Under the pieces are notes generated by a model. The model was not told where the DNA came from. It ran no database searches and was given only the letters and a program-made list of their open reading frames with translations. Shown piece after piece: positions 157 through 53,950 of a DNA stretch of 53,950 nucleotides. Source of the stretch: Alphaproteobacteria bacterium (GTDB lineage Bacteria > Pseudomonadota > Alphaproteobacteria > CAAGCB01 > CAG-977); NCBI GenBank assembly GCA_017539865.1, contig JAFYCE010000062.1:1-53950 (forward strand), read 5' to 3'. Position numbers and translations under genes: made by a program. Position 1 is the stretch's first letter; each line of letters starts with the position of its first letter.

Positions 157-180
157 TCGCTTTAAAGAGCTTACAAAAGG

Positions 181-213
181 CAAAGGCGGGGTTTTCCCCG
201 CCTTTGTTTTTTT
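181..213 (+). terminator. Intrinsic terminator of the flagellin gene
   Basis: CAAAGGCGGGG-TTTT-CCCCGCCTTTG perfect hairpin followed by a T run. Confidence 0.9.
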
Positions 214-1421: not shown

Positions 1422-1452
1422 AAACGGCGGAATTTTCAGATTCCGCCGTTTT
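1422..1452. terminator. Probable bidirectional terminator between convergent genes
   Basis: AAACGGCGGAAT-TTTCAG-ATTCCGCCGTTT hairpin. Confidence 0.75.
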
Positions 1453-1479
1453 ATCATCGTTTTCCCCGACGAAAAGCAG

Positions 1480-2055: not shown

Positions 2056-2084
2056 TTGTTTTTCTCTCCTTTAAAGTTAAAAAA

Positions 2085-3857
2085 TCACGGAATGAACGGC
2101 GACAGATAAATCAATCCGTTATCCACTTTGAACATCATTTCGACACCGGCTTCGCGCAACTTTCTTTCGTCCATCAAAGCCTTGTCTTTCAGCCTGATAT
2201 GAACGCCGCCGTCCGCCGCGTGTTCGCCGCTTTCGATGTTGTGTTCGCCCCCCAAAGCTTTTTCGACCGCTTCGGACAGGGAGAACTTCTTTTCCGATGG
2301 AACGGGAATGTCCCGCGAATGTGTCCGCAAGTATTCCTCCATATCGGTTTTCAGATTTTCGGAAGCCGTCCCGAAAACCGCCTGAACGCCGGAACCGACA
2401 CGCATAACGCCGGCCGCCCCCAACGCTTTCAGCTTGTCGTCGGACGCTTTTGAAGGGTCGTTTAAAATCAGGCGCAAGCGTGTGATGCAGGCGTCAAGGT
2501 TCTTGATATTTTCACGGCCGCCGAACGCTTCGACCAATTTTTCAGCCATTTTCATTTTATCGTCATGCCCTGCCAGAGCGGCCGCCTGCGCCATCGGAAC
2601 GACAGAGTCCTCGTCCCGTCCGGGGGTCTTCATGTTAAACGCCGTGATGACAACGCGGAAAACGATGTAATACAAAACGGCGTAAACCGGCCCCAGAATG
2701 AAAACTATCCACGGCTTCGTATCAAGAGCATAAAACAATGCAAAGTCGATCGCGCCCTGCGAAAACGTGTAACCGATATGCGCGCCGACCAGATTTATCA
2801 GCGCAAAAGCCGATCCGACCATAACGGCGTGAATGAAATAGAGCATCGGCGCGACGAACAGAAAAGAAAATTCCAGCGGTTCCGTGATGCCCGTTAAAAA
2901 CGACGTCAACGCCGCGGACGCCATAATGCCGCTGACTTTCAAGCGATTTTCAGGCTTGGCGGTATGCAGAATCGCCAGCGCCGCCGCCGGCAGTCCGAAC
3001 ATCTTGATCAGGAAACCTCCGCCCAAAATGCCGGCCGTCTTGTCGCCTGCGAAAAAGCGGGGAATGTCGCCGGTAACGACTTCGCCCAGCTTGTTCGTGT
3101 AAGACCCGATTTCAAAAAAGAACGGCACGTTCCAGATATGATGAAGCCCGAACGGCAACAACAGCCTTTCAACAAAGCCGTAAGTGGCTCCCGCGACCGT
3201 CGGCGCGCTGTACGCCGCCCACATTGAAAACTCGCTGATTTTTTCCTGAATCGGCGGCCAGAACAGGCTTAAAAACACGCCGAGCACAATCGCCACCAAA
3301 GAGGTAATGATTGGAACGGAACGCTTTCCCGCGAAAAATCCCAAATAAGGCGGCAGCTGGATTCTGTAAAATCTTTTATAGATGTAAGCCGCGACGACGC
3401 CGACGAACAGACCGCCGAAAACGCCCGTTTCAATCGTCTTGATGCCCATATTCGTCGCAACGATTTTTCGGGCGAACGCAACGTCGTAATCCAACGACTG
3501 CGCCAGAACGCCCAACGTTTCCCGACCTTCGGAAACGTGGAACCACAACACGTCCGCCATGACGCCCATTGTCGCCAACATCACGATAAAGCCCGTCACC
3601 GCCGCCAACGCCGCAACACCGTCGTTATCCGTCAGCCCCAACGTCGTACCGATAGCGAAAATCAACGGCATATTGGCAAAAATCACATTGCCGCTTTGAC
3701 TCATGATTTGCGGAATAATTGGCGGAAGCCATGAAATTTCCGCCGTCAACAGTCCCGACCCGATGCCCAAAAGCAATCCCGCAACAGGCAGGACGGCAAC
3801 AGGCAGCATCAGGGATTTTCCGATTTGCTGTAAGAACATAAACACCTTTTTAATCAT
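2085..3857 (-). CDS. ptsG: PTS glucose-family EIICB, with an extra degenerate EIIB-like C-terminal domain
   Basis: [27 protein letters not shown]; [12 protein letters not shown] with the phospho-Cys. Confidence 0.9.
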
Positions 3858-3860
3858 AAT

Positions 3861-6395
3861 TCATTCTCCCCGACCGGATAAAAATTCTTCTACGATTTTA
3901 TGAACGGCAGAGGCCGTTTCCTGCCCGACGGCCAGCCTTGCCAAATCTTCACACCTTGCAAACGACAAAGAACGTATTTGCGCTTTGATAGCCGGAATCA
4001 AAGGCGGCACAACACTTAATTCTTTCACGCCCAGACCAATCAGAACGGGGACGGCTTTTTCCTCGCCCGCCATCGCGCCGCAGACGCCGACCCATTTGCC
4101 ATGCTTTTTCGCCCCCTCAACCGTCATTTGAATCATGCGCAGAACGGCGGGATGCAAGCCGTCCGACAACTCCGCCAACAACGGATTGCCCCGATCGCTT
4201 GCCATAACGTATTGGGTCAGGTCGTTCGTGCCGATTGAAAAGAAATCGACATAAGGGGCTAACACATCCGCCGTTATCGCCGCTGCGGGGATTTCAATCA
4301 TAATGCCCGTTTCGACCGCCGGAGCGTTCATCAGTTCCCGTTCTTCCGCAACGATTTGCTTGGCAAGTTTCAACTCCTCCAGCGTCGTCACCATCGGAAA
4401 CATAATACGGATTTTGGTCTTGTCCGCAGCTTTTAAAATCGCCCTGATTTGAGAGCGAAACAGCGCCTGATGACGCAGACTTAAGCGCAATCCGCGCACA
4501 CCAAGGAACGGATTGGCTTCCTCCGGTTCTTTGATATAGGGCAGTTCCTTGTCTCCGCCGACATCCAGCGTTCTGACAATTACGGATTTATTTTTACCGA
4601 TGATTTCGGCAATTTTACCATAAACGGCCGCTTGCTCCGGTTCGCTTGGCGCTTCCTGCCGGCTCAAGAATAAAAACTCCGAGCGCAAAAGTCCGACCGC
4701 CTCCCCGCCGGAAGAAACGACGCGGCTGGTGTCTTCCGCGCTGCCGACATTGCCCGCGATTTCCAGACGAACGCCATCCGTCGTAATCGCCGGTTCGTTT
4801 CTTTTCTGAAACAGCTCCGCCTGCGTCCGGTGTTCCTTTTCTTTGTGCCGCAGAACGTCTTTTTTTTCTTTTTCATCGGGATTCAAATGCAATTCCCCTT
4901 TTCCGCCGTCCAGCAAAACGGGCGTGCCGTTGATGATGTTCAACACTTTTTCCGACAATCCCGAAACGGCGGGCAACATCATCGAACGCGCCAAAATCGC
5001 CGCATGCGATGACGCTCCGCCAACAACGGTCGCAAACCCCGCCACCTTTGTTTTATCAAGCAAAGCTGTGTCGGAAGGCGTCAGCTCCCGCGTAATGATA
5101 ATCGCATTGTCGGGCAAACTGATTCTTTGTTCCGCCGTTCCCGTCAACAGTCTTAGCACGCGCTTTCCGACATCCTGCAAATCCGCCGCGCGGCCGGCCA
5201 ACAAAGCGTTTTTCATTTCCGAAAACTGCCGCGCCTGCTTGTTGATTGTCTGCTGCCACGCAAAAGCGGCGCTTCGGCCGTCCTCAATCAATTTTTGAGC
5301 GTTTTCAAGCAATTCCGGATCTCCCAGTAATTCCTGATGAGCGATGAAGATTGCGGCTTTATCCGGCTCCGACTTTTTCATCATCTTTTCACTTAAATCG
5401 GCCAATTCATCGGACGCTTCGGACAACGCATTCATCAGTTTTTCCTTTTCTTTGGACGGCGGCGCGCCGAATTCCTCGACATCGAAAGCGGCGTCTTTCA
5501 ACTGAACAGCCACGCCGACCGCCGTTCCCGAAGACGCCGCTATCCCGAAAAACAGATTTTCCCTATCCGCATCTTTTGAAACGTTTTCTTCGATCAAAAC
5601 AGGAGCTTGAGTCAGTTCCTCGCCCAAACCCGTTTCAATCATCGGAATCAGCTTTTTCATCGCTTCGGTTGCGTCATAGCCGTCCGCCGTCAGGCGTACA
5701 TGATCGCCGTTCTTGATATCCAAGGCCATCACGGCGGTCAGACTTTTGGCGTTTGCTTTTTTATCGCCGAAAACCAGTTCGATTTCACAATTAAACCGCT
5801 TGGCCGCATTGACCAGAACGGCAGCGGGACGCGCATGAAGCCCGACCGGATTTTTGATTTCGATCTTCCATGATTCCGTCTTCATCCCTTTAACGGACGG
5901 CATCGGAATGATTTGCGCCTCTTTTTTCAGAGCGACCGTTAAAATTACATCTTTGCCCGCCGTCACATTTTTGTTTGTCATTGCCGTAACGCCGGTTGTC
6001 TGCTCCATATTTGCGACGACGATTTCCGTTAAAAGACTTTTCCCGTTTTTTTCGATGACTTCCGGCTGAAAAGCAATCAGACAATCGCCTTTTCTGACTT
6101 TCTGTCCGACGGACACTTTCAAATCAAAACCGGTTCCTTTCAACAAAACCGTATCCAAACCGACGTGCATCAAAACATCGATGCCCTGCTCCGTCCGCAT
6201 GGTCAGAGCGTGCTTGGACGAATGAATGTTGACGATTGTTCCGTCACACGGCGCGCACAGCATAAACGAGGACGGTGCGATCGAAATACCGTCTCCGATT
6301 GTTTTTTGCGCGAACACCATGTCCGGCACGGTTTCGATCGACTGCGTCTTTCCCGAAACAGGGGCATAAAGTTCCAATATTTTATCTTTAATCAT
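3861..6395 (-). CDS. ptsP: Multiphosphoryl transfer protein EIIA(Glc)-HPr-Enzyme I fusion
   Basis: EIIA LMHVGLDTV; HPr GLHARPA and NAKS; EI SSHAAI, GLLRSEF, RTLDVGGDK, SIGTNDL. Start at 6395 with RBS GGGAGA. Confidence 0.92.
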   Translation of the reverse strand: MIKDKILELYAPVSGKTQSIETVPDMVFAQKTIGDGISIAPSSFMLCAPCDGTIVNIHSSKHALTMRTEQGIDVLMHVGLDTVLLKGTGFDLKVSVGQKVRKGDCLIAFQPEVIEKNGKSLLTEIVVANMEQTTGVTAMTNKNVTAGKDVILTVALKKEAQIIPMPSVKGMKTESWKIEIKNPVGLHARPAAVLVNAAKRFNCEIELVFGDKKANAKSLTAVMALDIKNGDHVRLTADGYDATEAMKKLIPMIETGLGEELTQAPVLIEENVSKDADRENLFFGIAASSGTAVGVAVQLKDAAFDVEEFGAPPSKEKEKLMNALSEASDELADLSEKMMKKSEPDKAAIFIAHQELLGDPELLENAQKLIEDGRSAAFAWQQTINKQARQFSEMKNALLAGRAADLQDVGKRVLRLLTGTAEQRISLPDNAIIITRELTPSDTALLDKTKVAGFATVVGGASSHAAILARSMMLPAVSGLSEKVLNIINGTPVLLDGGKGELHLNPDEKEKKDVLRHKEKEHRTQAELFQKRNEPAITTDGVRLEIAGNVGSAEDTSRVVSSGGEAVGLLRSEFLFLSRQEAPSEPEQAAVYGKIAEIIGKNKSVIVRTLDVGGDKELPYIKEPEEANPFLGVRGLRLSLRHQALFRSQIRAILKAADKTKIRIMFPMVTTLEELKLAKQIVAEERELMNAPAVETGIMIEIPAAAITADVLAPYVDFFSIGTNDLTQYVMASDRGNPLLAELSDGLHPAVLRMIQMTVEGAKKHGKWVGVCGAMAGEEKAVPVLIGLGVKELSVVPPLIPAIKAQIRSLSFARCEDLARLAVGQETASAVHKIVEEFLSGRGE

Positions 6396-6576: not shown

Positions 6577-8043
6577 ATGGAAATCAGAGATAACGCCAAG
6601 TACTTTCGTCGGGAAATTCTCGTCCGCCTGATACGGTCTTTTTTAAAAAACAGGCTTGTTCTGGACGTGGATAAAATCCCCGTTGAAATCCTGCCGATGC
6701 GTCAGGCCGCCTATCGTTGCTGCATCTACAAAGAGCGTGCGATTTTGCGCACGCGCTGTCTGGCCGCTCTGGGCTTTCGGGTCGAAGAAGACGACGAAGT
6801 TACGCCTTTGTCCGAATACGCCCGCCGCGCTTTGAAACGGGAAAAGCCGATTCCGCCCGTTATGACGGTTTTGGATATTGCCTGCAACGAATGCGTGACG
6901 TCGCGCTATGTCGTGACCGAGTTGTGCCAAAGCTGTCTGGCTAGAGCATGCGCTCTGGCGTGTCCGTTCAACGCGATCGACATCAGCAAAGGCCCCGCCC
7001 GTATTGATCCCGACAAATGCAAAAGCTGCGGCAAATGCAAAGAAGCTTGTCCGTATCAAGCCATCATGAAACGCGTCGTGCCGTGCGAGAATGCCTGTCC
7101 TGTCGGTGCAATCAGACGCGGAACGGCGGGACGCGCGGAAATAGACTTTACGAAATGCGTTTCCTGCGGTCAATGCATGCGCGCCTGTCCGTTCGGTGCC
7201 GTTGTCGAGCGCTCTCAAATCATTGACATTTTAAAAGCGATGCTGACGGACAAGAAAAAAATGGTTGCCATGCTTGCCCCTGCGATCGCCGGCCAGTTCT
7301 CGGGAACAGTCAAACAAGTTATTTCCGCCTTACGGGCGATCGGTTTTTCAAGTGTCATTGAAGTCGCTGTCGGCGCGGATATCACGACACGCAATGAAGC
7401 GAAAGAATTCATTGAACGCATGGAAAAGGGCGATGCTTTTATGACGACGTCGTGCTGTCCGGGCTATATTGAAACGGTGAAACGGCACGTCCCCGAACTA
7501 AAAAAATTCGTTTCCGACACGGCGACGCCGATGCACTACACGGCGGAACTGGCAAAAAAAGACCCGCAAGCCGTCACCGTCTTTATCGGGCCTTGCGTTG
7601 CGAAACGGTATGAAGGATTGAACGATCCCCTGATTGATTTTGTGATGACGTTTGAGGAATTGGACGCTTTATTTGAAGCGACGCAAATCAGCGTTTCCGA
7701 CTTTACGGAGGCGGACTTTGACGTCCTGCCGTCCGCGCAGGGACGCGGTTTCGCGGTAACGGGCGGCGTCGCGGCGGCGGTCAATGCCGTTGTCAACGGC
7801 CGTGTCGAAATAAAACCCGTCTGCATTAACGGCATCAAGCCCGCGATGTTAAGACTGTTCAAGACCTATCCGAACGGCAAAGCCCCCGGCAACCTGATCG
7901 AAATGATGACATGCGAAGGCGGATGCATCGCCGGTGCAGGCGTCGTTCGCCCGGCCAAAAAAACAATCAAAGACGTCGAAAAATTTGCCGCCGAAGCGCA
8001 GTCGATTACGCCGGACGAAGAAAAAAATAGAAAGCCTTTTTAA
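6577..8043 (+). CDS. hydA: Monomeric [FeFe]-hydrogenase with ferredoxin-type 4Fe-4S domains
   Basis: H-cluster motifs TTSCCPG, GPCVAKRYE, EMMTCEGGCIAGAG; several CxxCxxCxxxCP motifs. Confidence 0.9.
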   Translation: MEIRDNAKYFRREILVRLIRSFLKNRLVLDVDKIPVEILPMRQAAYRCCIYKERAILRTRCLAALGFRVEEDDEVTPLSEYARRALKREKPIPPVMTVLDIACNECVTSRYVVTELCQSCLARACALACPFNAIDISKGPARIDPDKCKSCGKCKEACPYQAIMKRVVPCENACPVGAIRRGTAGRAEIDFTKCVSCGQCMRACPFGAVVERSQIIDILKAMLTDKKKMVAMLAPAIAGQFSGTVKQVISALRAIGFSSVIEVAVGADITTRNEAKEFIERMEKGDAFMTTSCCPGYIETVKRHVPELKKFVSDTATPMHYTAELAKKDPQAVTVFIGPCVAKRYEGLNDPLIDFVMTFEELDALFEATQISVSDFTEADFDVLPSAQGRGFAVTGGVAAAVNAVVNGRVEIKPVCINGIKPAMLRLFKTYPNGKAPGNLIEMMTCEGGCIAGAGVVRPAKKTIKDVEKFAAEAQSITPDEEKNRKPF

Positions 8044-42727: not shown

Positions 42728-43921
42728 ATGACACCGACTAAGCCGTTGGCCGGAATCAAAGTTCTGGATTTGACCCGCGTTTTGTCCGGCCCGTATTGCG
42801 CCCAAATGTTGTTGGACATGGGAGCGGACGTTTTAAAAATCGAAAATCCGGCATGGGGGGATGACGCCCGCCTGTTCCAGCCGTTCGTCGGCAAAAAGAG
42901 TCTTTATTTCGAATGCGTCAACGGCGGTAAAAAAAGTCTGACATTGAACTTCAAAAATCCGAAAGCGGTTGACATCCTCAAAAAACTGATTGTTGACGCC
43001 GACATCTTAGTCGAAAACTATCGTCCGGGGATTATGAAAAAGTTCGGCTTGGACTACGAAAACGTCAAAAAAATCAATCCGCGCCTGATTTACGCATCGA
43101 TTTCAGGATTCGGACAAACGGGGCCTGACGCGATGAAACCCGCTTATGACATTTTGACACAGGCGCGCGGCGGCGTGATGAGCCTAACCGGTTATCCGGA
43201 CGGTGATCCGATGATGGTCGGCATATCGTTCAGCGACATGATTGCCGGCGTGTTTGCCGTCACGGCCATTACAACGGCTCTTTATCAGCGGGAAAAAACG
43301 AACGAAGGCCAGCAAATCGACATTTCCATGTTGGACTGTCAGGTTTCTTTGCTGGAAAGTTCGATGATGCGCTACCAATTTTCAAAGGTCGCACCGAAAC
43401 CGGTCGGCTGCCGCCATCCGACGGAAGCCCCTTTCCAGTCGTTCAATGCGTCCGACAGACCGTTTGTCATCGCGGCCATCGGCGATGTGATGTTCCAAAA
43501 GCTTTGCGCTTTGGTCGGTCATCCGGATCTGCCCGCCGACCCGAAGTTTTCATCAACGGCGGCGCGTCATGAAAACCGTGACGAGCTGGCCGTCATCCTG
43601 CAAAAGGAATTTTCGAAAAAAACGGCAAAAGAATGGGTGAGCGCGCTGGAAGGAAACGGCATTCCCGTTTCCTTGATTCAAAATCTGGAGGAAGTCTGCC
43701 AAGACCCGCAAGTCATCGCCCGCCACATGATGATCGATTCCGAAGATCCGGAATTGAAGGACATCAAGCTGATGGCCACGCCGATTAAAATGTCGATGTT
43801 GCCGAATCAGATTTCCCGTCCCGCCGCCCCCGCTTTGGGACAAGATACGGCGGATATTTTGCACAAACTTGGCATGAACGACGACCAAATCCAAGAATTG
43901 AAAAAAGAAGGCGTTATTTGA
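42728..43921 (+). CDS. CaiB/BaiF family (class III) CoA-transferase
   Basis: LAGIKVLDLTRVLSGP, ENYRPG, SGFGQTGP, catalytic D in SFSDMIAG. Confidence 0.92.
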   Translation: MTPTKPLAGIKVLDLTRVLSGPYCAQMLLDMGADVLKIENPAWGDDARLFQPFVGKKSLYFECVNGGKKSLTLNFKNPKAVDILKKLIVDADILVENYRPGIMKKFGLDYENVKKINPRLIYASISGFGQTGPDAMKPAYDILTQARGGVMSLTGYPDGDPMMVGISFSDMIAGVFAVTAITTALYQREKTNEGQQIDISMLDCQVSLLESSMMRYQFSKVAPKPVGCRHPTEAPFQSFNASDRPFVIAAIGDVMFQKLCALVGHPDLPADPKFSSTAARHENRDELAVILQKEFSKKTAKEWVSALEGNGIPVSLIQNLEEVCQDPQVIARHMMIDSEDPELKDIKLMATPIKMSMLPNQISRPAAPALGQDTADILHKLGMNDDQIQELKKEGVI

Positions 43922-43940
43922 TAACGCCTTTTTAATTACA

Positions 43941-43977
43941 AAAAGAAGCCTTCGGATTTTTCCAAAGGCTTCTTTTT
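43941..43977. terminator. Bidirectional terminator
   Basis: AAAAGAAGCCTT...AAGGCTTCTTTT between convergent genes. Confidence 0.85.
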
Positions 43978-44001
43978 CAAGGCAGGAAACGATGTCGTTT
44001 C

Positions 44002-46095
44002 TTAAACAACGCTGAACAGCAGGTCGGAATACGTCGGGAACGGCCAGTATTCTCTGGCAGTCAAGACTTCCGCCATATCGCACGCCGTACGCAATTCCGC
44101 CATTTTTCCGATGACGTTGTCGCGGACGGCATAGGATTTTTCAAAAACGTCAGTAATCATATCGACGCTTTTAACGGCTTGTTCCAATTCGCCGGCGGCT
44201 TTAATGGCTCTGACGGTCAGATCGGACAGTTTTGAAATCGTTTCCGTTTCAAAGGAAGCTTCGGCAATCGGACAGACTTTGTGTTTAACGTCCGCCGTTT
44301 CCGCCAGTTTTCCGATGTATTTTTCGATGGCCGGCAAAATTTCGCGGCGGGACATTTCAAGCATGGTGTTTGCTTCGATCAAAACGGTTTTCACATAGTT
44401 TTCCAAAATGATCTCGCAGCGCGAAGCCAATTCGGCTCGACTGAAAACGCCTTGTTTCATCAGCATGGAAGCGTTCTTTTCATCTAGCGATCTCGGCATG
44501 CAGTCCGGCGTCGTCTTCAAATTGGAAAGGCCGCGCTTTTCGGCTTCTTTAATCCACGATTCATCATAACCGTTTCCATCGAATAAAATGCGTTTGTGGT
44601 TTGTGATTGCGGTTTTCAACAAATCTTTCAACGCTGTTTTGAAATCCGTTGCGTTTTCCAGAACGTCGGCGTATTCGGACAACGTTTCCGCAACCGCCGC
44701 GTTCAGCATGATGTTAGCGCAGGCGATGCTGTTTGACGACCCGAGCATACGGAATTCAAACTTGTTGCCCGTAAAAGCGAACGGGGAAGTCCGGTTGCGG
44801 TCGGTGGTATCGCGCAGGAACTTCGGCAGAGCCGGAACGCCGAACATCATTTCCGTTTTCTTGACGCCGTCAAAGGAGGTGCCGTTTTCGATCGCGTTCA
44901 AGACTCCGGTCAGTTCTTCGCCCAAAAAGATGGAAACGATGGCGGGAGGTGCTTCATTCGCGCCCAGACGGTGGTCGTTGCCTGCTGAAGCGACGGAGGA
45001 TCTCAGCAGATCCTGATAGGTGTCGACGGATTGAATGATCGCGCAAAGGAACAGCAGGAAGCGTGCGTTTTCCGCCGGTGTTTCCCCCGGTTTCAGCAGA
45101 TTGTCGCCGCCGTCGGTCGCCAAAGACCAGTTGTTGTGCTTACCGCTACCATTAACGCCCGCGAACGGTTTTTCGTGCAGCAGGCAAACCAATCCGTGCC
45201 GCAAGGCGACTTTTTGCATCAATTCCATCGTCAGCTGATTGTGATCCGTTGCAATGTTGGCGGTTACAAATATCGGCGCCATTTCGTGCTGCGACGGGGC
45301 GACTTCGTTATGTTCGGTTTTGGCCAGAATGCCCGCTTTCCACAATTCTTCGTTCAAATCGGCCATAAATTCGGCGACACGGGGTTTGATGGAACCGAAA
45401 TAGTGGTCTTCCAATTCCTGCCCTTTCGGCGGTTTTGCGCCGAACAGCGTGCGTCCGGTAAAGATCAGGTCTTTGCGTTTTTTGAACAGTTCGCGATCGA
45501 TCAGAAAATATTCCTGTTCCGGACCGACACAGGGAACGACGCGCTTTGTTGCTTGGTCGCCGAACAGGCGCAGGATCCTCAACGCTTGCGTATTCAGAGC
45601 CTCCATCGAACGGAGCAGAGGCGTCTTCTTGTCCAGAACCGAACCGTCATAAGAACAGAAGGCGGTCGGAATGCACAAAGTTTTGTCTTTTATGAAAGCG
45701 AAGGAAGTCGGATCCCACGCCGTATAGCCGCGCGCTTCGAACGTGGCGCGCAGGCCGCCGGACGGAAAAGAGGAAGCGTCGGGTTCGCCGTGAATCAGTT
45801 CTTTTCCGGAAAATTCCATAATGATACCGCCGTCGGGAGACGGAGAAATGAAGCTGTCGTGTTTTTCCGCTGTCAGTCCGGTCATCGGTTGAAACCAATG
45901 GGTGAAGTGGGTCGCCCCTTTCGAGATCGCCCAGTTTTTCATCGCGTTGGCAACGGGGTTCGCAACGGAAATATCCAAAGGCGCGCCTTCGTCGATCGTT
46001 TTTTTCAGGGAACGGTAAACGTTCGCATCCAGTGACGCTTTCATTGCGCGTTCGTTAAAAACCATGCTGCCGAACAGTTCGGGAATACTCTCCAT
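44002..46095 (-). CDS. glnA: Glutamine synthetase type III
   Basis: [65 protein letters not shown]. Confidence 0.95.
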
Positions 46096-46119
46096 TTTTT
46101 TTCTCCGTAAAAAAAGCAC

Positions 46120-46165
46120 AAAAAAAGACGTATCGAAGGAAAAACCTTCGAGACGCCTTTGTCTC
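46120..46165 (-). promoter_or_regulatory. ANTAR-type hairpin overlapping a leader terminator (attenuator) of glnA-III
   Basis: Minus strand GAGAC-AAAGGC-GTCTC (hexaloop with A1/G4) overlaps the 5' arm of AAGGCGTCTCGAAGG-TTTTT-CCTTCGATACGTCTT plus U run. Confidence 0.8.
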
Positions 46166-46176
46166 AACAGAGCAGA

Positions 46177-46229
46177 GTATTATCCCTTTGAAAAAAAGAT
46201 TGCAAGGATTTTTTTTCGGGTGGTATAAA
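46177..46229. promoter_or_regulatory. Divergent sigma70-type promoters sharing a palindromic -35 (TTGCAA, 46200-46205)
   Basis: Plus: TTGCAA-18 nt-TATAAA with extended TG; minus: TTGCAA-17 nt-TAATAC. Confidence 0.55.
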
Positions 46230-46238
46230 GAAAACAGA

Positions 46239-46297
46239 GAACAATGGCGTTCACCCGACGGGAAATGTATGTTTTCCGCGGATGGGCGTTTTTTTTT
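46239..46297 (+). promoter_or_regulatory. ANTAR-type hairpin overlapping a leader terminator of the GS-I-like/ANTAR/nadE operon
   Basis: GAAC-AATGGC-GTTC (A1/G4 hexaloop) overlaps the terminator GCGTTCA..CGGGAAA..TTTTCCG..TGGGCG followed by T9. Confidence 0.8.
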
Positions 46298-46317
46298 GCA
46301 AGAAACGGAGAACGGCT

Positions 46318-47526
46318 ATGAAATATACGGTGGAAGACGTCAAAAACTATATTCGCGAAGAGGACGTGAAATTCATCCGTCTGGCGTTTTGCGATGTTTA
46401 CGGCACACAAAAGAACATATCCGTCATGCCCGATGAAATCGACCGCGCTTTTACGACCGGCATCGCGTTTGACGCTTCGGCCGTCAAAGGATTCGGCGAT
46501 GAGGCTCATTCGGATTTGTTTCTTAGTCCCGATCCGGCGACTTTGGCCGTTTTTCCGTGGCGTCCCGAACACGGCCGCGTTGTCCGTATGTTCTGCTCAA
46601 TCAAACGTCCGGACGGCAGTCTTTTTGAAAACGACACGCGCTCCATTCTGCAAAAAGCCGTTAAAACGGCGGAGGAAAAGGGCGTTTCCTTTTCTTTCGG
46701 CGCGGAAATGGAATTTTTTCTTTACCTGTGCGACGAAAACGGCGAACCGACTCAAATCCCCTATGACAAAGCGGGATATATGGATATCGCCCCCAAAGAC
46801 AAAGGCGAAAACGTCCGCCGCGAGATTTGCCTGACACTGGAACAGATGGGCTTTCATCCGGAAGCCTCCCATCATGAGGAAGGGCCGGGGCAGAACGAAA
46901 TCGATTTCCGTTATTCCGATCCGTTAGGCGCGGCGGACGACACGATCACTTTCCGCAGTGTCGTCAGAACGATCGCCGCCAGAAACGGGCTATACGCCGA
47001 TTTTTCGCCCAAGCCGCTGACCGACAAACCGGGAAACGGATTCCATATCAACTTTTCGGCTCAAAAAACGGACGGAACGGATGTGACGACTTTCGCCGCC
47101 GCCGGTGTTCTGGATAAATCCGCCGCAATGACGCTTTTTTTGAATCCGTCCGAAAATTCTTACGCCCGTTTCGGAAAAAGCAAAGCGCCGCGTTATATCG
47201 CGTGGTCGGAACAAAACCGCTCGCCGCTGATCCGGATTCCGGCGGCGCAAGGAGAATACCGCCGCGCCGAACTGCGTTCGCCCGATTCCGAAACAAATCC
47301 GTATGTGGCGTTTGCGTTGATGATCCATGCGGGACTGGAGGGAATCGAAAACAAAATGATTTTACCGCCGCCCGCCGGTTTCAACCTGTTCACCGCAACG
47401 CCCGAACAACTGGAACGTTTTGCCGTACTGCCGCAATCGCTTTCAGAAGCCCGTCAAACGGCGGTTTCGTCGGATTTCATTAAAGCAACTCTGCCGGCTT
47501 CTCTGACGGATTCGTATTTGTTGTAA
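46318..47526 (+). CDS. Glutamine synthetase type I-like protein (short)
   Basis: VKFIRLAFCD, GAEMEFF, SHHEEGPGQNEIDF, PKP..GNGFH, NRSPLIRIP, ELRSPD. Confidence 0.88.
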   Translation: MKYTVEDVKNYIREEDVKFIRLAFCDVYGTQKNISVMPDEIDRAFTTGIAFDASAVKGFGDEAHSDLFLSPDPATLAVFPWRPEHGRVVRMFCSIKRPDGSLFENDTRSILQKAVKTAEEKGVSFSFGAEMEFFLYLCDENGEPTQIPYDKAGYMDIAPKDKGENVRREICLTLEQMGFHPEASHHEEGPGQNEIDFRYSDPLGAADDTITFRSVVRTIAARNGLYADFSPKPLTDKPGNGFHINFSAQKTDGTDVTTFAAAGVLDKSAAMTLFLNPSENSYARFGKSKAPRYIAWSEQNRSPLIRIPAAQGEYRRAELRSPDSETNPYVAFALMIHAGLEGIENKMILPPPAGFNLFTATPEQLERFAVLPQSLSEARQTAVSSDFIKATLPASLTDSYLL

Positions 47527-47536
47527 AGGAACATCT

Positions 47537-48118
47537 ATGCAGGCCGAACGCGTCTATTCCGTGCTGATCGTTTCCGCGAATGATAAATTTGCGGACGCTT
47601 TCCGCGCGCGTTTGGATTCCGTTCTTTTCCCCGACATATCCGTTGTTTCGAATGAAGCGGCGGCGAAACGCGCCGTTTTGGATAAAACGTTCGATATCGT
47701 CCTGATAAATTGTCCTTTGCCGGACGCGTTCGGCGACGAATTGGCCGCCGACCTTTGCAGGAAATCGCAGTCTGCCGCGGCGTTATGTGTCAACGCTTCG
47801 ATTTACGACGAAGTCTTTGCCAAAGTGTATTCTTCCGGTGTGTTTGTGCTGAAAAAACCCCTGACGACGGAAATGATCGATCAGGCGGTCGATTGGCTTC
47901 GCACCGTGCGCGAGCGTCTGCGGAAAAATCAGGAAAAGAATGTCAGCCTGCAGGAAAAGATGGAGGAGATCCGCTTGGTCAACCGTGCTAAATGGCTGTT
48001 GATCGATAAATTGAAAATGACCGAAAGCGACGCTCACCGCTTTATTGAAAAGCAGGCGATGAATCTGGGAATCACCAAAAAGGAAATGGCTGATAAAGTC
48101 ATTCGGTCATACGGTTGA
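47537..48118 (+). CDS. ANTAR RNA-binding antiterminator with atypical receiver domain (NitR/AmiR-like)
   Basis: C-terminal EEIRLVNRAKWLLI..MTESDAHRFIEKQAM ANTAR motif; receiver reads DIVLIN rather than D..D. Confidence 0.9.
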   Translation: MQAERVYSVLIVSANDKFADAFRARLDSVLFPDISVVSNEAAAKRAVLDKTFDIVLINCPLPDAFGDELAADLCRKSQSAAALCVNASIYDEVFAKVYSSGVFVLKKPLTTEMIDQAVDWLRTVRERLRKNQEKNVSLQEKMEEIRLVNRAKWLLIDKLKMTESDAHRFIEKQAMNLGITKKEMADKVIRSYG

Positions 48119-48131
48119 AAGGAATGAAAAA

Positions 48132-50036
48132 ATGAAAGACGGTTTTATCAAAGTTGCGGCCGTTACGCCGGAAGTCAAAGTCGCCGACGTCGATTACAAC
48201 AGCCAAACCGTTTGTTCTTATATGGAACAAATCGCGCGGGAAAAAATCAAAGTCGCGGTGTTTCCGGAACTTTGCCTGACCGGCTATTCGTGCCAAGATC
48301 TTTTTTTGCAGGACAGCTTGTCGGAAACCGCGGAAAAAGCCCTTTTGACCGTTGCCAAAAAAAGCGAAAAAATCGACGGCTTGTTTTTTATCGGTTTGCC
48401 GTTGGTCGTTGACGGAAAGCTTTATAATACGGCGGCGGCCGTCAGCCGCGGAAAAATCCTCGGCATTGTTCCGAAAATCCATTTGCCGAACTACAATGAA
48501 TTTTACGAAGCCCGCCATTTCCATTCCGGCAGGAACTTGGATACGGCCGTTCAAATCGGCGGCCGAACTGTTCCGGTCAAAAGCAAGCTGATGTTTTGTT
48601 GTAAAGAAATGCCGTCCCTTAGGATTGCGGCGGAATTGTGCGAAGATTTATGGACGCCGGAGCCTCCGAGCATTGCTCATTGCTTGGCGGGGGCGACGGT
48701 GATCGCAAACCTGTCGGCGTCGAACGAAATCACGGGAAAAAGCCGCTACCGCAGAGAGTTGGTCAAAGGGCAGTCGGCACGGCTGATTTGCGGCTATGTG
48801 TATGCTTCGGCCGGAAACGGCGAATCTACGCAGGATGTCGTTTATTCCGGACATGACATTATCGCCGAAAACGGAACCGTTCTGGCCGAATCGAAAGTCT
48901 TTTCCGAAGGGATTACGGCGGCGGAATTCGACCTGAAACGGCTGGAATCCGATCGCAGAAGAATGACGACTTATGAATCGGAACCGGATGACGACTATAC
49001 GAAAGAGACTTTTTCGCTTGAGGTTGCTGAAACGGAACTGCACCGTTTCATCGATCCGTATCCGTTTGTACCGTCCGATAAATCGGAAAGGGATGTCCGG
49101 TGCGACGAAATCATTTCCATTCAAGCCTCAGGATTGAAAAAACGCTTGGAGCATATCGGTTGTAAACGGGCCGTTATCGGCATTTCCGGCGGGTTGGATT
49201 CCACTCTGGCTTTGTTGGTGACGGCACGGGCTTTTGATTTGCTCGGGCTGGACAGGAAAGGAATTCTGGCCGTCACGATGCCCGGTTTCGGCACGACCGA
49301 CCGCACCTATAACAACGCCGTTTCCTTGATTCGCCGTCTCGGGGCGGAGTTTTCGGAAATCAATATCGCCAATGCGGTCACCGTTCACTTTGCGGATATC
49401 GGACACGACCCGCAGGTGCGCGATGTCACGTATGAAAATTCTCAAGCTCGGGAAAGAACGCAAATTCTGATGGATTTGGCCAATCAAAACAACGGAATCG
49501 TTATTGGAACGGGCGATTTGTCCGAACTGGCGTTAGGCTGGGCGACGTATTGCGGCGATCATATGTCCATGTATGCCGTCAACGCTTCCGTACCGAAAAC
49601 GCTGGTCAGACATTTGGTCGGATATTTTGCGGACACCTGCGGGGAAAAGGAACTTTCGGACACGTTGCGCGACATTCTGGACACGCCTGTATCTCCCGAG
49701 CTTCTGCCGGCGGAAAACGGAAAAATATCCCAAAAAACGGAAGATCTGGTCGGGCCTTACGAACTGCACGACTTTTTCCTGTATCATATGCTCAGAGGCG
49801 GCAGTACGCCTGACAAAATCCGCCGTCTGGCCGAAATCGCCTTTAAAGACAAGTATGCGGACGCCGTTATTCTGAAATGGGAAAAGACATTCTATCAACG
49901 CTTTTTCGCGCAACACTTCAAACGGAGCTGTCTGCCGGACGGCCCGAAAGTGGGATCGGTCGCATTGTCGCCCCGCGGAGATCTGCGGATGCCGACGGAC
50001 GCCTGCGCTTCGATCTGGTTGAAAGAATTGGATTGA
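48132..50036 (+). CDS. nadE: Glutamine-dependent NAD+ synthetase
   Basis: Nitrilase domain FPEL, PK.HLPNY, ELCEDLW; synthetase GISGGLDS, ENSQARER, GTGDLSE. Confidence 0.95.
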   Translation: MKDGFIKVAAVTPEVKVADVDYNSQTVCSYMEQIAREKIKVAVFPELCLTGYSCQDLFLQDSLSETAEKALLTVAKKSEKIDGLFFIGLPLVVDGKLYNTAAAVSRGKILGIVPKIHLPNYNEFYEARHFHSGRNLDTAVQIGGRTVPVKSKLMFCCKEMPSLRIAAELCEDLWTPEPPSIAHCLAGATVIANLSASNEITGKSRYRRELVKGQSARLICGYVYASAGNGESTQDVVYSGHDIIAENGTVLAESKVFSEGITAAEFDLKRLESDRRRMTTYESEPDDDYTKETFSLEVAETELHRFIDPYPFVPSDKSERDVRCDEIISIQASGLKKRLEHIGCKRAVIGISGGLDSTLALLVTARAFDLLGLDRKGILAVTMPGFGTTDRTYNNAVSLIRRLGAEFSEINIANAVTVHFADIGHDPQVRDVTYENSQARERTQILMDLANQNNGIVIGTGDLSELALGWATYCGDHMSMYAVNASVPKTLVRHLVGYFADTCGEKELSDTLRDILDTPVSPELLPAENGKISQKTEDLVGPYELHDFFLYHMLRGGSTPDKIRRLAEIAFKDKYADAVILKWEKTFYQRFFAQHFKRSCLPDGPKVGSVALSPRGDLRMPTDACASIWLKELD

Positions 50037-50181
50037 CTGGGAACTGTCATTCATTTTTCTTTTATTTTTCAATAAGTTGTCGGATTTTAAGTTTCATTCT
50101 TGCCAATCTGGTTTTAACAAGGTTTATTTGCGCGATGCTGCCGTAAAAAGGAAGACGCGAAAAAATTTTTTTCAAAAAAGC

Positions 50182-50210
50182 TTGACAAAAAAATAAAAAA
50201 TAACGATATT
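50182..50210 (+). promoter_or_regulatory. Sigma70-type promoter of ORF 50252
   Basis: TTGACA-17 nt-GATATT; G-rich RBS before ATG 50252. Confidence 0.5.
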
Positions 50211-50251
50211 TACAGTTGCATTTACTTTTTAAAATACAGGGGGGGGTAGAA

Positions 50252-51427
50252 ATGTCGTTCCTTGCAAAAATTTTCGGTAAGAAAAAATCACATACGGAAG
50301 AAAACAAACAGGGGCAATCTGCTGTAACAAATGTTTCCGTAAAGAATCCCGAAGAACGCACTCGTGAGGATTTGGAACGGGATCTGGCTGTCATAACACA
50401 GAAAGATCCTGAAACGGGCGCGCTGATAACCCGTGCCCCCGGAAAAAAAGAGAAATCATATTTAAAACAAACACTTGATTTCATCGAAAAGGTTTCCGGC
50501 GGCAAGGAAATGTTGGACGATATAGCCAAAAAGGGATACAGAATCGTTTTCAGCGAAAAGAAAAATGATGAAAGCAAGGAAAGTTATAGAACCGACAAGG
50601 ACTGGTACAGCCGGTCAGCGATCATGCTTTCCTTGGACAGCCATAAAACGACGCAGGGATTGGCACTTTCCTGCATGCATTTTTTAGGATGTATAAAGCA
50701 GAATGAACAGCTCAAGGCGGCCGGAATAGTGGAAAAGGATTTGAATATGGCCGACCAAATCAGACTGGATCGCGCGCGAACTGTCGCCCGATACGCTCTG
50801 GAAGCGGAACTGGTCGTTCAAATGTCGAAAATCGAACCGAATGATGAAGGCGGGCTGAGCTTGACCCTTCCCTACGGCTTGAAGCAGGTTTTTGCCATAC
50901 ATCCGCCCATAAAAGCGTATGCTCAAGAAATGCTGAACACCGCCGGCGACAGAGGCAAATCCGTTGAAAAAGTGGCGGATTCGTTTTGCGAAGCAACCCA
51001 TGACGTGAAATATTATCGCGACGCCTATGAACAAACATATATCCGGAACATCATAAACGGATTAAACAATTCTCCGGATAACCGGACGGCTCTGCAAAAA
51101 TCGCTGACACCGGAAGAAATGGTGAAGGTCAGCTTTGTCAAACTGTTTCAGAAAAACGTTTCACCCGATTTTCTGAAATCGGAAGAGATGAATTCCCTGT
51201 CCGAAAATGCGCTCAACAAGCTGCAGGCCATATCCGAAGAGTGCGAAAAGGCGGGAATTAAAGACAGATCTTTTAAACAGCTGCATCCGCATGATCTGCG
51301 ATTGTCATATAAAGAAATGAAAAAGCTGACTGCGGCACTGAAAAGAAATAAAAAAGAACAGTCTGCCGAAACGAAAAAACCGGCTAATGCCGCTTTTATG
51401 GCAAAAATCAAACAAGAGGGAAGATAA
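50252..51427 (+). CDS. Paralogue of the 25273 metallopeptidase-like protein with destroyed HExxH
   Basis: LNMADQIRLDRA vs LNMADQLRLDRA; SCMHFLGCIKQ in place of NCVHEMTHAMQ; ends KIKQEGR. Confidence 0.78.
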   Translation: MSFLAKIFGKKKSHTEENKQGQSAVTNVSVKNPEERTREDLERDLAVITQKDPETGALITRAPGKKEKSYLKQTLDFIEKVSGGKEMLDDIAKKGYRIVFSEKKNDESKESYRTDKDWYSRSAIMLSLDSHKTTQGLALSCMHFLGCIKQNEQLKAAGIVEKDLNMADQIRLDRARTVARYALEAELVVQMSKIEPNDEGGLSLTLPYGLKQVFAIHPPIKAYAQEMLNTAGDRGKSVEKVADSFCEATHDVKYYRDAYEQTYIRNIINGLNNSPDNRTALQKSLTPEEMVKVSFVKLFQKNVSPDFLKSEEMNSLSENALNKLQAISEECEKAGIKDRSFKQLHPHDLRLSYKEMKKLTAALKRNKKEQSAETKKPANAAFMAKIKQEGR

Positions 51428-51732: not shown

Positions 51733-53950
51733 TCAGAAATTATACCTGACATTGATCAAGCCCGTGTGATCGGTGTAGTGCGATTTAAACTTTCCTTCAT
51801 AGGACAAGCCGATGTCGGTGTTGCCGCCGACTTTGAACGACACGCCGGCACCCAATTCGACACCCCAGCGTTTCATGTTTTTGCTTCGGCCACATAACTC
51901 GAGCAGTTCGCCAGTGTCACCGTCCGGTTTTGGCTGTCGCGACGGAAATCATATGTCAGCGCCAGTTTTGCGTCCGGCGTGATTGTCGTATTGCCGGAAC
52001 GGAAGGATTTTGCCGCTTTCACGCCGCCGACCCATGTCCACGTGTCCAGCGTCTTGCTCGCCATCTTCGCCCCCAACGCGTCTATGTAAGAGCGCTGACG
52101 CACGCTCGTGTAACGCAAGCCGGCTTCCGGCGTCACGATATCGTTCACCGCGTAGCCCGCCATCACTTGGCCCGCAAACGTGTTCGCGCGGTAATCGCTC
52201 TGCAGTCCCGCCAAACGCGTCGTTTCATCGTAACGGGAATGACCGTAGCTCAAAACGCCGTTCACATAGAAGTTATCCGGTTTGTATTCGCCATAGGTAA
52301 AGAACGTGTGCGTGTCAACGTCCGTCTTGCTTCTGGCGGTGTCAATGTCCGTATTCGTATAAGCGTATCCGACGCCTGCCTTGACTGAGTCGTTGACGTT
52401 GTATTCAAAGCCCGCCGCAAAACCGGTCGAATCGGAATCAAACCCGTCGGCTTTGTGCAAATCGGCCTTGTTATACAGACCTTGCGCCCAGACGGAAGCC
52501 GCGCCGGCCGTGTAATCGCCGCCCGAACGGCCTTTGTCCGTCGAGGAGGAACCACCGCCCATACGACCGCCGACAATGTTCATCACCGCGCCAGCATTGG
52601 CAGTCGCCGTCGATGAAGCCGAAGGTGACGCTTCCGGCGTGACTTCACGCAAAAGCTGTTTCAGCCAGACGGGATTTCCCGGGGAAGCGTCCAATAAAGT
52701 GATAATGTTTCTCGCTGCGGCTTTGTGAAACGGAGACAGCATATCGACAACGTCGTCTTCCAAAGCGGCAATCGCTTTTTCTTCATTTCCGGTAATGAAA
52801 AAGCCTTTGTTTCTTAAAACTCTTATTGCCGCTTTACCGGACGACAACAAACGTAAAATATACAAATCTCCGCCTGTCCATCCGCGCAAGGGCCCGACCG
52901 CCCTTGCTTCGTTCACATTAAAGACAGAAGCGGAAACCGCGAATTTGTTTGTATCGTAACCGGCAAAGGAAAAGCCCGTTCCGTCCGTAATATGATACAG
53001 CGTCACTTCATCGCGGGAAACGTCGCTCATATCCAAAGCCAACGTCACGTTCGCCGCCGTTGCCGTAATCATCGGAGCGGTCTTTGCCGCGTCGCTCAAA
53101 GTCGCCTTTAAAATGCCGCCGGTGATGGTTGCCGCTTCCAAAACGCCGGTACCGATGTCCAGCGTTTTGCCGTCGGAAATCAGTATGGATTGTGCGGTCG
53201 TTCGTGCGGCGCGAACGGTCGCATCCGATGAAACGGACGTATCGGGAGCGTTAAAAGTGACGTTTCCCGAACCGAAAGAATATCTTCCGCCGGCAATCGT
53301 TATGCTCCCGCCGGCAGCTCTGAATTCCGTTCCGTTTCGGGCGGAAAACATCATGTTGCCGGACAGATTTAAATTATTTGCAGCTCTGAAGAGAATGGAC
53401 GCGTTAGAAGAAGTATATGTCCCCCCTGTCACCGTTATATCACTTGTATTTGTTGTAAAAACAAGAGAATTTTGGGCATTAACGCTTACATTGTCGGATA
53501 AGCTCAAATTATTCTGAGCGGTAAAACTAACTAAAGCCGTTGCAGAGGAATACGTTCCACCGGTAACCGTCATATCGCCATATGATGTAAAATCAAGACT
53601 AGTGTTGGCATTGACGTTTACATTGTCGGATAAGCTCAAATTATTCTGAGCGGTAAAACTAACTAAAGACGTTTCGGATGAATACGTTCCACCGGTAACC
53701 GTCATATCGTCATTTGATGTAAAATTAAGACTAGTGTTGGCATTGACGTTTACATTGTCGGATAAGCTCAAATTATTCTGAGCGGTAAAATTAACTAAAG
53801 ACGTTTCGGAAGAATACGTTCCGCCTGCTATCGTCATAGCGCCGGCGATTGCTCTAAAATTAAGAGAGCTGTTGGCATTGACGTTTACATTGTCGGATAA
53901 GCTCAAATTATTCTGAGCGGTAAAACTAACATAGGACGTTTCGGATGAAT
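51733..53950 (-). pseudogene. Autotransporter (type Va) with repeat passenger, frameshifted near its C-terminus; 5' end outside the window
   Basis: Beta-domain SVWAQG, GVGYAY, TPEAGLRY. Frame stops at 51873, but the adjacent frame continues NMKRWGVELGAGVSF...GLINVRYNF* to 51733. Confidence 0.8.
53390..53950 (-). repeat. 132-135 bp tandem coding repeat (44-45 aa) in the autotransporter passenger
   Basis: TTGTCGGATAAGCTCAAATTATTCTGAGCGGTAAAA recurs at 53491, 53623, 53755 and 53890; unit LSLSDNVNVNANTSL.F.....TVTGGTYSS....VSFTAQNN. Confidence 0.92.

Follow-up and report, generated by a model that had tools for sequence, protein, structure and literature searches.

An ANTAR protein with a pseudo-receiver is controlled in at least two described systems, AmiC-AmiR of Pseudomonas aeruginosa and NasS-NasT of Paracoccus denitrificans, not by phosphorylation but by the binding of a ligand sensor encoded next to it (PMC3369931, PMC3795266). 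In Clostridium saccharobutylicum, the gene of the ANTAR antiterminator NitR follows glnA, and its product induces the genes of glutamine synthetase (GS) and glutamate synthase (GOGAT) on nitrogen limitation; a review describing it calls the clostridial nitrogen mechanism "not fully understood" (PMC6316151, citing Stutz et al. 2007 for NitR). In Bacillus subtilis, GS itself is encoded in one operon with a nitrogen regulator and controls the regulators TnrA and GlnR by direct binding. The stretch of DNA analysed here (the window: 53,950 nucleotides (nt), contig JAFYCE010000062.1 of assembly GCA_017539865.1, from an Alphaproteobacteria bacterium of the CAAGCB01/CAG-977 lineage according to GTDB) carries a locus that recalls all of these: a short gene of GS type I (GS-I), followed closely by an ANTAR gene and by nadE, and lying divergently to a gene for a type III GS (GS-III). 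It is very probably an antitermination module of the clostridial glnA-nitR type (NitR-type) that was acquired horizontally. The explanation we prefer adds that the GS-like protein is the probable ligand-sensing input of this module; taken as a whole, it stands about midway between right and wrong.

On the plus strand, the gene of the GS-I-alpha-like protein (46318..47526; 402 amino acids (aa), with the start MKYTVEDV that is common to all homologues) is separated by 10 nt from the ANTAR gene (47537..48118; 193 aa), and this by 13 nt from nadE (48132..50036), whose product, a glutamine-dependent NAD+ synthetase, combines CN_hydrolase and NAD_synthase domains and matches NF002730 at 869 bits. 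On the minus strand, across an intergenic region of 219 nt, lies glnN (44002..46098), which encodes a complete GS-III of 698 aa (Pfam GSIII_N 265.6 bits, Gln-synt_C-ter 136.3, Gln-synt_C 69.8) and is likely the catalytic GS that the module controls. With its 13-nt gap and no leader of its own, nadE is probably co-transcribed with the two genes before it. The ANTAR gene is the sole one in the genome; a canonical GS-I is also encoded there (contig C100, 463.7 bits). The open reading frames (ORFs) and their Pfam and NCBIfam matches agree with the gene layout and coordinates given in a first-pass annotation of the window, down to the complete divergent GS-III, the absence of a histidine kinase gene nearby (10 HATPase_c matches genome-wide, none of them on the window's contig, C31) and the three strings it had quoted (DIVLIN, VLIVSAND and FDASAVKGFGDEAHSD), all of which are found in the translations.

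The order of a GS-I gene and an ANTAR gene is that of glnA-nitR, and the clostridial GS genes of canonical length in the sample (441-444 aa) are likewise followed by an ANTAR gene and preceded by the same leader hairpin. The window differs from glnA-nitR in its GS, which at 402 aa carries lysine in the flap and lacks Arg62 and the C-terminal thong (see below), in its alphaproteobacterial host, and in the appended nadE. Relatives of the ANTAR protein are numerous, with 5792 proteins matching at E<=1e-5 among 6025 candidates (193-195 aa, about 50% identity). When one genome per species was scanned and the best 80 of 583 relatives were kept as loci, the ANTAR gene was preceded in 78, at a distance of 0-100 nt and on the same strand, by a GS-like gene 60-66% identical to the window's; the other two loci have less than 110 nt of contig there. 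The complete GS-like ORFs are 400-416 aa long in 67 of 68 cases. In 23 of the 80 loci a GS-III gene is close by, in divergent orientation and 65-79% identical to that of the window, and nadE follows the ANTAR gene in a single one, L006. A second survey covered 301 sampled genomes of Clostridia (regulator threshold at least 130 bits; the regulator and GS tables were paired by eye): the regulator is present in 87 of them (about 29%), and a GS-I-type gene lies directly upstream of it in about 78 of these, with 5 undecidable (contig ends or an unlisted row) and 4 lacking one. The functional coupling of GS-like and ANTAR protein, as first proposed for this locus, is thus borne out by adjacency in both surveys.

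The regulator consists of a receiver-like N-terminus and a C-terminal ANTAR domain (residues 138-189; Pfam PF03861, 54.1 bits against a cut-off of 27.3); for the N-terminus, Response_reg (PF00072) reaches 27.0 bits, under its cut-off of 30.2. The best solved relative over the full length is Rv1626/PdtaR of Mycobacterium tuberculosis (PDB 1s8n; E 5.1e-20, residues 10-192), likewise a receiver joined to an ANTAR domain, which however has kept the acidic pair and the phosphoacceptor Asp; in the window, Ser13-Ala14 align with the acidic pair and Asn58 with the phosphoacceptor, and Lys107-Pro108 of the receiver fold are retained. AmiR matches the ANTAR part of a profile of the window's regulator family (E 1.7e-8). 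At the phosphoacceptor column, Asn stands in 62 of the 68 regulators paired with a short GS and in 28 of the 38 paired with an intermediate one, and the residue is mixed in those paired with a canonical GS (Asp 8, Gly 6, Asn 6), while the acidic pair is absent from all ANTAR partners in all three tiers (the tiers are described below). The alignment to Rv1626 thus upholds the description of the protein as a pseudo-receiver with an Asn acceptor and no acidic pocket, and since such a receiver cannot be phosphorylated, the signal must arrive by binding. The companion claim, that the circuit is new and peculiar to this locus, falls: it is a copy of the clostridial glnA-nitR type of module, in which the Asn pseudo-receiver is a family trait.

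As had been supposed for GS-III and the GS-like operon, both units begin with matching terminator leaders. In the GS-III leader (46117..46167, minus strand), a hairpin TTGAGAC-[AAAGGC]-GTCTCGA (46167..46148) overlaps an intrinsic terminator, whose stem extends to about 46123, with a T-run after it; in the leader of the GS-like-ANTAR-NadE operon (46237..46300, plus strand), a hairpin GAAC-[AATGGC]-GTTC (46239-46252) overlaps a long terminator ending in T9 (46289-46297). The hexaloops AAAGGC (46160..46155, minus) and AATGGC (46243-46248, plus) conform to the consensus AA[A/U]GGC, and in each leader the loop and the 3' half of the hairpin double as the 5' arm of the terminator, the two pairings being mutually exclusive. 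The fold of the GS-III leader has z = -3.56, with 0 of 200 shuffles as good, and a terminator-like site was found there by scan as well; the leader of the GS-like operon has z = -2.68, with 2 of 200 shuffles as good. PMC3369931 describes the ANTAR RNA substrate of EutV/EutW as two hairpins with A1 and G4 in the hexaloop and a 3' half overlapping the terminator, and reports ANTAR RNA matches upstream of glutamine and glutamate synthase genes; the window's leaders share the loop residues and the overlap, and differ in having one hairpin, at their very 5' end, and in the regulator, EutV being phosphorylated by EutW.

The element, C-AANG(G/A)C-GT with an overlapping terminator, recurs in related clostridial loci, and the plus-strand leader of the window aligns base for base with that of L006. 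In an alignment of 46 examples (A5: 44 of the 48 leaders that passed a filter, together with the plus-strand leaders of the window and L006, which failed it), 99.7% of the hairpin cells are paired, with two-sided changes in 5 of 7 pairs, and 90% of the terminator cells, with two-sided changes in 10 of 16 pairs, against 34-59% in slid controls; since the filter itself called for a stem of 4 bp and for 10 complementary bases out of 12, only the outer pairs are free of selection. Searches with general models add little to this. A scan of 43800-50400 against Rfam at E<=5 gave weak, unrelated matches and no family of ANTAR or leader type, and a covariance model of the leaders (R1) run on the whole genome found no further convincing one; its best extra match (C61:645-696, 25.7 bits) precedes a murein-transglycosylase-like gene and was rejected. 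A leave-out model built on 42 clostridial leaders (R2) gives the window's leaders 28.2 bits (GS-III) and 26.2 bits (GS-like operon), and gives 30.3 to a terminator at window 175-212; as an ordinary terminator thus outscores the leaders, the covariance models are not specific and their scores are not used as proof. The 10-nt core CAANGRCGTY, found 4 times in the window where 3.4 occurrences are expected, is not enriched by itself, so that the evidence for the leaders lies in context and structure. A genome scan by regular expression proved too permissive (75 matches, mostly noise) and was set aside. The terminator at 175-212, a strong bidirectional one (AAAAGGCAAAGGCG...CGCCTTTGTTTTTT), follows a gene whose product we take to be flagellin-like, from the look of its C-terminus.

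Between the two leaders, back-to-back sigma-70-like promoters (46177..46229, both strands) are read from the sequence, with a shared palindromic -35 element TTGCAA (46200-46205): the -10 element of GS-III is TAATAC (46182..46177, minus) and that of the GS-like operon TATAAA (46224-46229, plus), at spacers of 17 and 18 nt; they are inferred promoters, and a consensus scan gave no report of them. In 39 of 48 leaders, the 50 nt before the hairpin contain a -35-like hexamer. The two divergent units may thereby share, or compete for, one polymerase-binding site at TTGCAA.

Forty-eight leaders were classified by the gene that follows (46 of the 48 filter hits and the two added plus-strand leaders): 12 precede GS-III, 12 a GS-I-type gene and 22 another gene, and 2 have no gene after them. 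Those among the other genes that Pfam confirms are a split glutamate synthase of three genes (L006), CTP synthase (L020, L061), MurT/GatD (L061) and GMP synthase (L020), the leaders in question lying at 4597-4653 (minus) and 6605-6659 (plus) of L020 and at 6625-6683 (plus) of L061. From their N-termini only, the genes after leaders in L024, L038 and L045 are presumably CTP synthases, and those after some others (L019, L029, L052, L031) presumably glutamate dehydrogenase and adenylosuccinate synthetase. So delineated, the predicted regulon reaches into glutamine-consuming nucleotide and cell-wall steps, and NadE fits this wider pattern, in which genes of glutamine amidotransferases occupy comparable places under such leaders in Clostridia. 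Two loci have tandem leaders before one gene (L076, 346-471, minus; L052, 3336-3479, minus), so arranged that transcription would have to pass two termination points one after the other.

The GS-like protein matches Gln-synt_N (83.9 bits) and Gln-synt_C (280.5 bits), both over the Pfam cut-offs, and scores 334.2 bits against the GlnA equivalog TIGR00653, below the cut-off of 429.15; its relatives are named 'glutamine synthetase' or 'glutamine synthetase family protein' in the sources. By sequence it is closest to the B. subtilis GSI-alpha group (E 1.4e-103 to 4lnf), and the profile of its family scores best against the GS of Methanosarcina mazei (E 2.3e-127). The ligands of metal, ATP and glutamate are kept (E130, E132, E187, E194, H243, R284, R301, R306, E318, R320), as is the equivalent of Asp50 (D52); R284, E130 and H243 are the residues that bind glutamate or glutamine. 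The changes lie in the loops: the catalytic Glu of the E flap (B. subtilis Glu304, which we take to correspond to E. coli Glu327) is Lys289, the equivalent of Arg62 is Asp61, the region after His243 carries a deletion of 12 aa (12-13 aa in the short forms generally), and the C-terminal thong is missing, so that the protein ends about 25 residues before canonical GSI-alpha. The altered catalytic loops noticed in the first-pass annotation are confirmed in this by alignments to 4lnf and 8s59. In B. subtilis GS, the E flap, the D50 loop and the thong helices alpha14/alpha15 form the docking site of TnrA and GlnR, and the residues that sense feedback glutamine are Glu304, in the E flap, and Arg62, which supports it from the D50 loop (PMC9249791, PMC4335299); the thong helices also hold the two hexamer rings to each other (PMC9249791). 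The B. subtilis regulators differ from the window's in being MerR-type DNA binders with a C-terminal tail rather than ANTAR proteins that bind RNA, their signal is glutamine, and the enzyme that controls them is fully catalytic.

The changes in the GS partner form a graded series. For this, 60 further pairs were added to cover the lower-scoring tiers, not at random, giving 128 tabulated pairs. In the canonical tier (n=22; 435-444 aa), the Arg62 position is Arg and the flap residue Glu in all 22, and the C-terminal tail mostly has 25 residues; in the intermediate tier (n=38; 423-446 aa), the Arg62 position is never Arg, the flap Glu is present in 32, and the tail has 18-31 residues, mostly 25 or 27; in the short tier, to which the window belongs (n=68; 400-438 aa), the Arg62 position is again never Arg, the flap residue is Lys in all 68, and the tail is reduced to 0-4 residues in 63. 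The 68 flap-Lys short forms constitute a single clade (SH-like support 100). Seven partners (L139, L140, L141, L105, L127-129) go further and have 3-7 of 12 catalytic positions replaced, metal ligands included; all seven of these 'dead' GS are intact ORFs beside an ANTAR gene, and in a FastTree phylogeny of 129 GS rows the dead state requires at least 3 independent changes, the joining of L139 and L140 being that of a long-branch pair and possibly false. The series thus runs from canonical GS through loss of Arg62 and then of flap Glu and thong to loss of the metal site, with the 2-oxoglutarate (2-OG) pocket kept throughout, and provides a concrete and cheap set of proteins for testing a change from enzyme to receptor. 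In one locus (L093; G197 C1:2277607-2280992), a canonical-scoring GS-I (437 bits) is followed by an intermediate GS (597 bits) and then by the ANTAR gene, in what is by these scores a tandem of an enzyme-like and a partner-like GS.

The mechanism that these features suggest is the following. The ANTAR protein would bind the nascent transcripts of glnN and of its own operon (GS-like-ANTAR-nadE) at the 5' hairpin of the leader; the bound hairpin would stay closed, the terminator could not form, and transcription would read through under nitrogen scarcity. The GS-like protein would be the most probable input, acting mainly as a ligand sensor and not as the cell's glutamine synthetase, and would hold or release the regulator as AmiC does AmiR and NasS does NasT; the likeness to these systems lies in a pseudo-receiver ANTAR protein with a candidate partner encoded beside it, and the difference in the partner, their sensors resembling periplasmic binding proteins and the window's candidate being a GS homologue. 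This role as a sensor is suggested by the tight pairing, the receiver that cannot be phosphorylated, the remodelled docking loops, the loss of the thong, the presence of GS-III in 29 of 29 genomes and, above all, by dead GS with an intact pocket. That the GS-like protein directly controls the regulator we consider somewhat short of an even prospect. A complex prediction from the alignments of the GS-like protein (A4) and the ANTAR protein (A3) gave scores of 0.01 and 0.01 against a mark of 0.32, and speaks neither for nor against binding.

The strongest competitor, which we regard as possible though it convinces us less, holds that the GS-like protein is a working GS isoenzyme, feedback-insensitive and perhaps activated by 2-OG, in a GS-GOGAT operon, and that the ANTAR protein is autoregulatory and senses through a small ligand, PII or GS-III. 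A number of observations favour it and weigh against a sensor role. The ligand set listed above is invariant in 56 of 56 family members, except for E187 (at least 90%), and in three of four named genomes of Clostridia the short GS is the sole GS-I-type gene. The order of three split glutamate-synthase genes, GS-like gene and ANTAR gene under the same leader, found in L006 and in many Clostridia and ancestral to the window's operon, is readily understood as a GS-GOGAT operon whose GS is functional, and the tight adjacency of GS and ANTAR genes could equally reflect autoregulation of an assimilation operon. A B. subtilis GS with the exchange E304A is called feedback-insensitive and was used as an active enzyme to replace E. 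coli glnA (PMC7334480), so that loss of the flap Glu need not abolish activity; NasT, itself an ANTAR pseudo-receiver, binds cyclic di-GMP directly (PMC10783516). Four of the 87 genomes with the regulator have no GS-I-type match at all (E<=1e-40; G029, G056, G129 and G067, with the loci L152, L154, L153 and L155), their regulators share the pseudo-receiver motif (VSAG..., INxPLPxE), and in two of them the regulator lies directly beside a divergent GS-III; a GS-I partner is thus not obligatory. No fusion of GS and ANTAR was found among 4 long ANTAR relatives. On the side of the RNA, two further points tell against the preferred explanation: the leader filter inflates the pairing of the inner pairs, and no second hexaloop hairpin is found between the inferred -10 element and the terminator in the window's two leaders and the 46 aligned ones, although a non-canonical second element is possible.

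Against a working isoenzyme, at least three lineages keep a GS whose metal site is destroyed beside the regulator, and the remodelled loops coincide with those on which B. subtilis GS docks its regulators. GS-III is also present in all 29 sampled genomes with the short form (GS of at least 650 bits), compared with 208 of 300 overall. The window's genome keeps the short form under strong purifying selection in spite of possessing a canonical GS-I and GS-III, and its GS-like protein remains below the cut-off of the GlnA equivalog.

If the GS-like protein is the sensor, its ligand has to be considered. The first-pass annotation had it sense glutamine in the manner of the feedback-inhibited B. subtilis GS and then sequester or activate the ANTAR protein. 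This has a precedent in GS as the glutamine-dependent partner of TnrA and GlnR, and R284, E130 and H243 are kept; the apparatus of the read-out, however, is not, and we consider this version improbable. The Arg62 position is never Arg in the 106 short and intermediate GS (Asp, Gly or other), and Glu304 is replaced by Lys in 68 of 68 short GS, with D61 and K289 as the equivalents in the window; in M. mazei GS, R66A alone abolishes inhibition by glutamine (PMC11957540). Asp61, Lys289 and the missing thong together make a glutamine read-out of the B. subtilis style unlikely. The idea that Asp61 and Lys289 replace Arg62 and Glu304 by a charge swap was dropped as a general feature, position 61 being Asp in 47 and Gly in 17 of the 68 short forms.

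The allosteric pocket for 2-OG, in contrast, is well preserved. The residues that bind 2-OG in M. mazei GlnA1 are F24, R26, S38, R87, R172, R173 and S189 (PMC11957540 among the sources), and those in the GS of Methanothermococcus thermolithotrophicus are F18, R20, R88, R174, R175 and S191, with a small residue at position 34. The window has F19, R21, N33, R82, R167, R168 and S184 at the positions of the M. mazei contacts, and S35 at that of A40; in the window's family, 6 of the 7 contacts are identical to M. mazei and one is a conservative exchange (S38 to Asn). Across the 128 GS partners, the pocket is F19 in 128, R21 in 125, N33 in 124, Ser, Ala or Thr at 35 in 128, R82 in 124, R167 in 128, R168 in 128 and S184 in 123, and all eight positions (seven contacts and one of non-clash) are kept in the window and in all seven dead GS. 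At three of the positions B. subtilis GS carries Tyr, Glu and Thr, to which the archaeal papers attribute its failure to bind 2-OG; in the window's family, the two residues that would clash with 2-OG are replaced by Phe and Ser/Ala, as in the archaeal GSI-alpha. The archaeal proteins differ from the window's in being active enzymes with flap Glu and a full C-terminus, and the portions of the papers at hand describe no link to ANTAR.

From this distribution we infer that the pocket survives where catalysis decays, and the likelier signal is 2-OG rather than feedback glutamine, perhaps joined by ATP and glutamate bound in the active site that has been retained. Given direct control by the GS-like protein, 2-OG is quite probably its signal rather than glutamine; that it is a ligand of the GS-like protein at all can be put forward only tentatively. 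It has to be set against this that R167, R168 and S184 are conserved also in GS that do not bind 2-OG, so that the argument rests mainly on F19, S/A35 and R82. Broadest in reach, and on present evidence rather unlikely, is the generalization that the shortened and dead GS homologues, thousands of them in gut and rumen Clostridia and some passed on to gut Alphaproteobacteria, may be no enzymes but receptors for 2-OG (and adenylate or glutamate) which bind NitR-type pseudo-receivers and thereby gate antitermination at the genes of GS-III, glutamate synthase, glutamate dehydrogenase and glutamine amidotransferases. If true, this would constitute a third bacterial logic of nitrogen sensing, beside PII and GS-GlnR/TnrA, and one that acts on RNA.

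The origin of the module is indicated by its distribution. The nearest locus, L006, comes from a record labelled uncultured alphaproteobacterium and has the same layout, with 89-98% protein identity; among the other genomes of the window's family, 3 of 24 carry the regulator (1 of 14 within the genus), whereas none of 16 genomes from further families does, and neither, with the exception of one weak match of 76.8 bits, does any of the 200 other genomes of a sample of the class. The GS-like proteins of the window and L006 are nested in the clostridial 68-row flap-Lys clade, and this nesting, together with the patchiness within the family, indicates horizontal transfer; it fits a presumed passage of the module, together with GS-III, from Clostridia into a family of gut Alphaproteobacteria. 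In L006, the leader is followed by split glutamate-synthase genes (GATase_2, 368 aa; Glu_synthase with 4Fe-4S, 503 aa; GXGXG, 245 aa; 1438-4782) and only then by the GS-like gene; in the window this stretch of 3.3 kb is missing, and the leader runs straight into the start of the GS-like gene (46300-46318), the only glutamate synthase of the genome being a conventional large GltB-like ORF (contig C115). This loss, and the patchy occurrence of the module among relatives, could be taken to mean that the locus is left over from a transferred island, is decaying and has no present function. We find this very improbable: all ORFs are intact, as are leaders, promoters and ribosome-binding sites, and the ratio of nonsynonymous to synonymous substitution (dN/dS) against L006 is 0.048 for the GS-like gene, 0.074 for the ANTAR gene and 0.105 for a third value, at dS of about 0.6-0.7, so that the module has been under strong purifying selection after transfer. 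The complete module is also present in L012, L036 and L071, records labelled Coriobacteriales, Chloroflexi and Planctomycetia, which are either further transfers or mis-binned contigs.

The weakest explanation, phosphorylation of the receiver by an orphan histidine kinase encoded elsewhere, as in a two-component regulator like EutV, can draw on Lys107-Pro108 and on the 10 HATPase_c matches of other contigs, some of which will be ATPases other than kinases, and is the least credible of all in view of the family-wide Asn acceptor and Ser-Ala pair, the Response_reg score under the Pfam cut-off and the lack of a kinase gene near the module in the window.

Much of what the preferred explanation combines is already known: glnA-nitR operons, ANTAR pseudo-receivers governed by a partner, GS as a sensor that binds regulators, the archaeal 2-OG pockets, and ANTAR leaders before nitrogen genes. 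A literature search within the available library found no paper linking a GS homologue to an ANTAR protein by binding. Within that library, four things appear to be new: the large family of short flap-Lys GS, with the dead GS, as constant partners of a regulator; the pattern of conservation of pocket against active site; the class of leaders with a single 5' hairpin, together with its regulon of glutamine-using enzymes; and the transfer across phyla. The GS partners are annotated as plain glutamine synthetase; should they be sensors rather than enzymes, metabolic reconstructions of many gut and rumen Firmicutes over-count GS activity. The copy in the window suggests that the whole switch, RNA leaders included, would work as a cassette transferable across phyla.

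Two ruminant gut metatranscriptome libraries contain short contigs of 97-99% identity that cover parts of window 46401-49523 and 45825-46157, those of the first (X1) holding parts of the GS-like, ANTAR and NadE genes and those of the second (X2) the 5' end of GS-III and its leader; the contigs represent small shares of the two runs and cannot show transcription, ends or levels, and a close relative of the window's organism is present in ruminant gut samples. Downstream of nadE lies an ORF of 403 aa (50216-51427, plus strand) without Pfam match at E<=0.01, to which an ORF of 363 aa near the other end of the window (315-1406) looks similar in composition by inspection. Beyond it, a long ORF on the minus strand (51873-53948) runs off the end of the contig and contains many near-identical repeats of the type 'GGTYSSETSLV.FTAQNNLSLSDNVNVNA'; its C-terminal part presumably is an autotransporter beta-domain, to judge by resemblance, which fits a diderm host.

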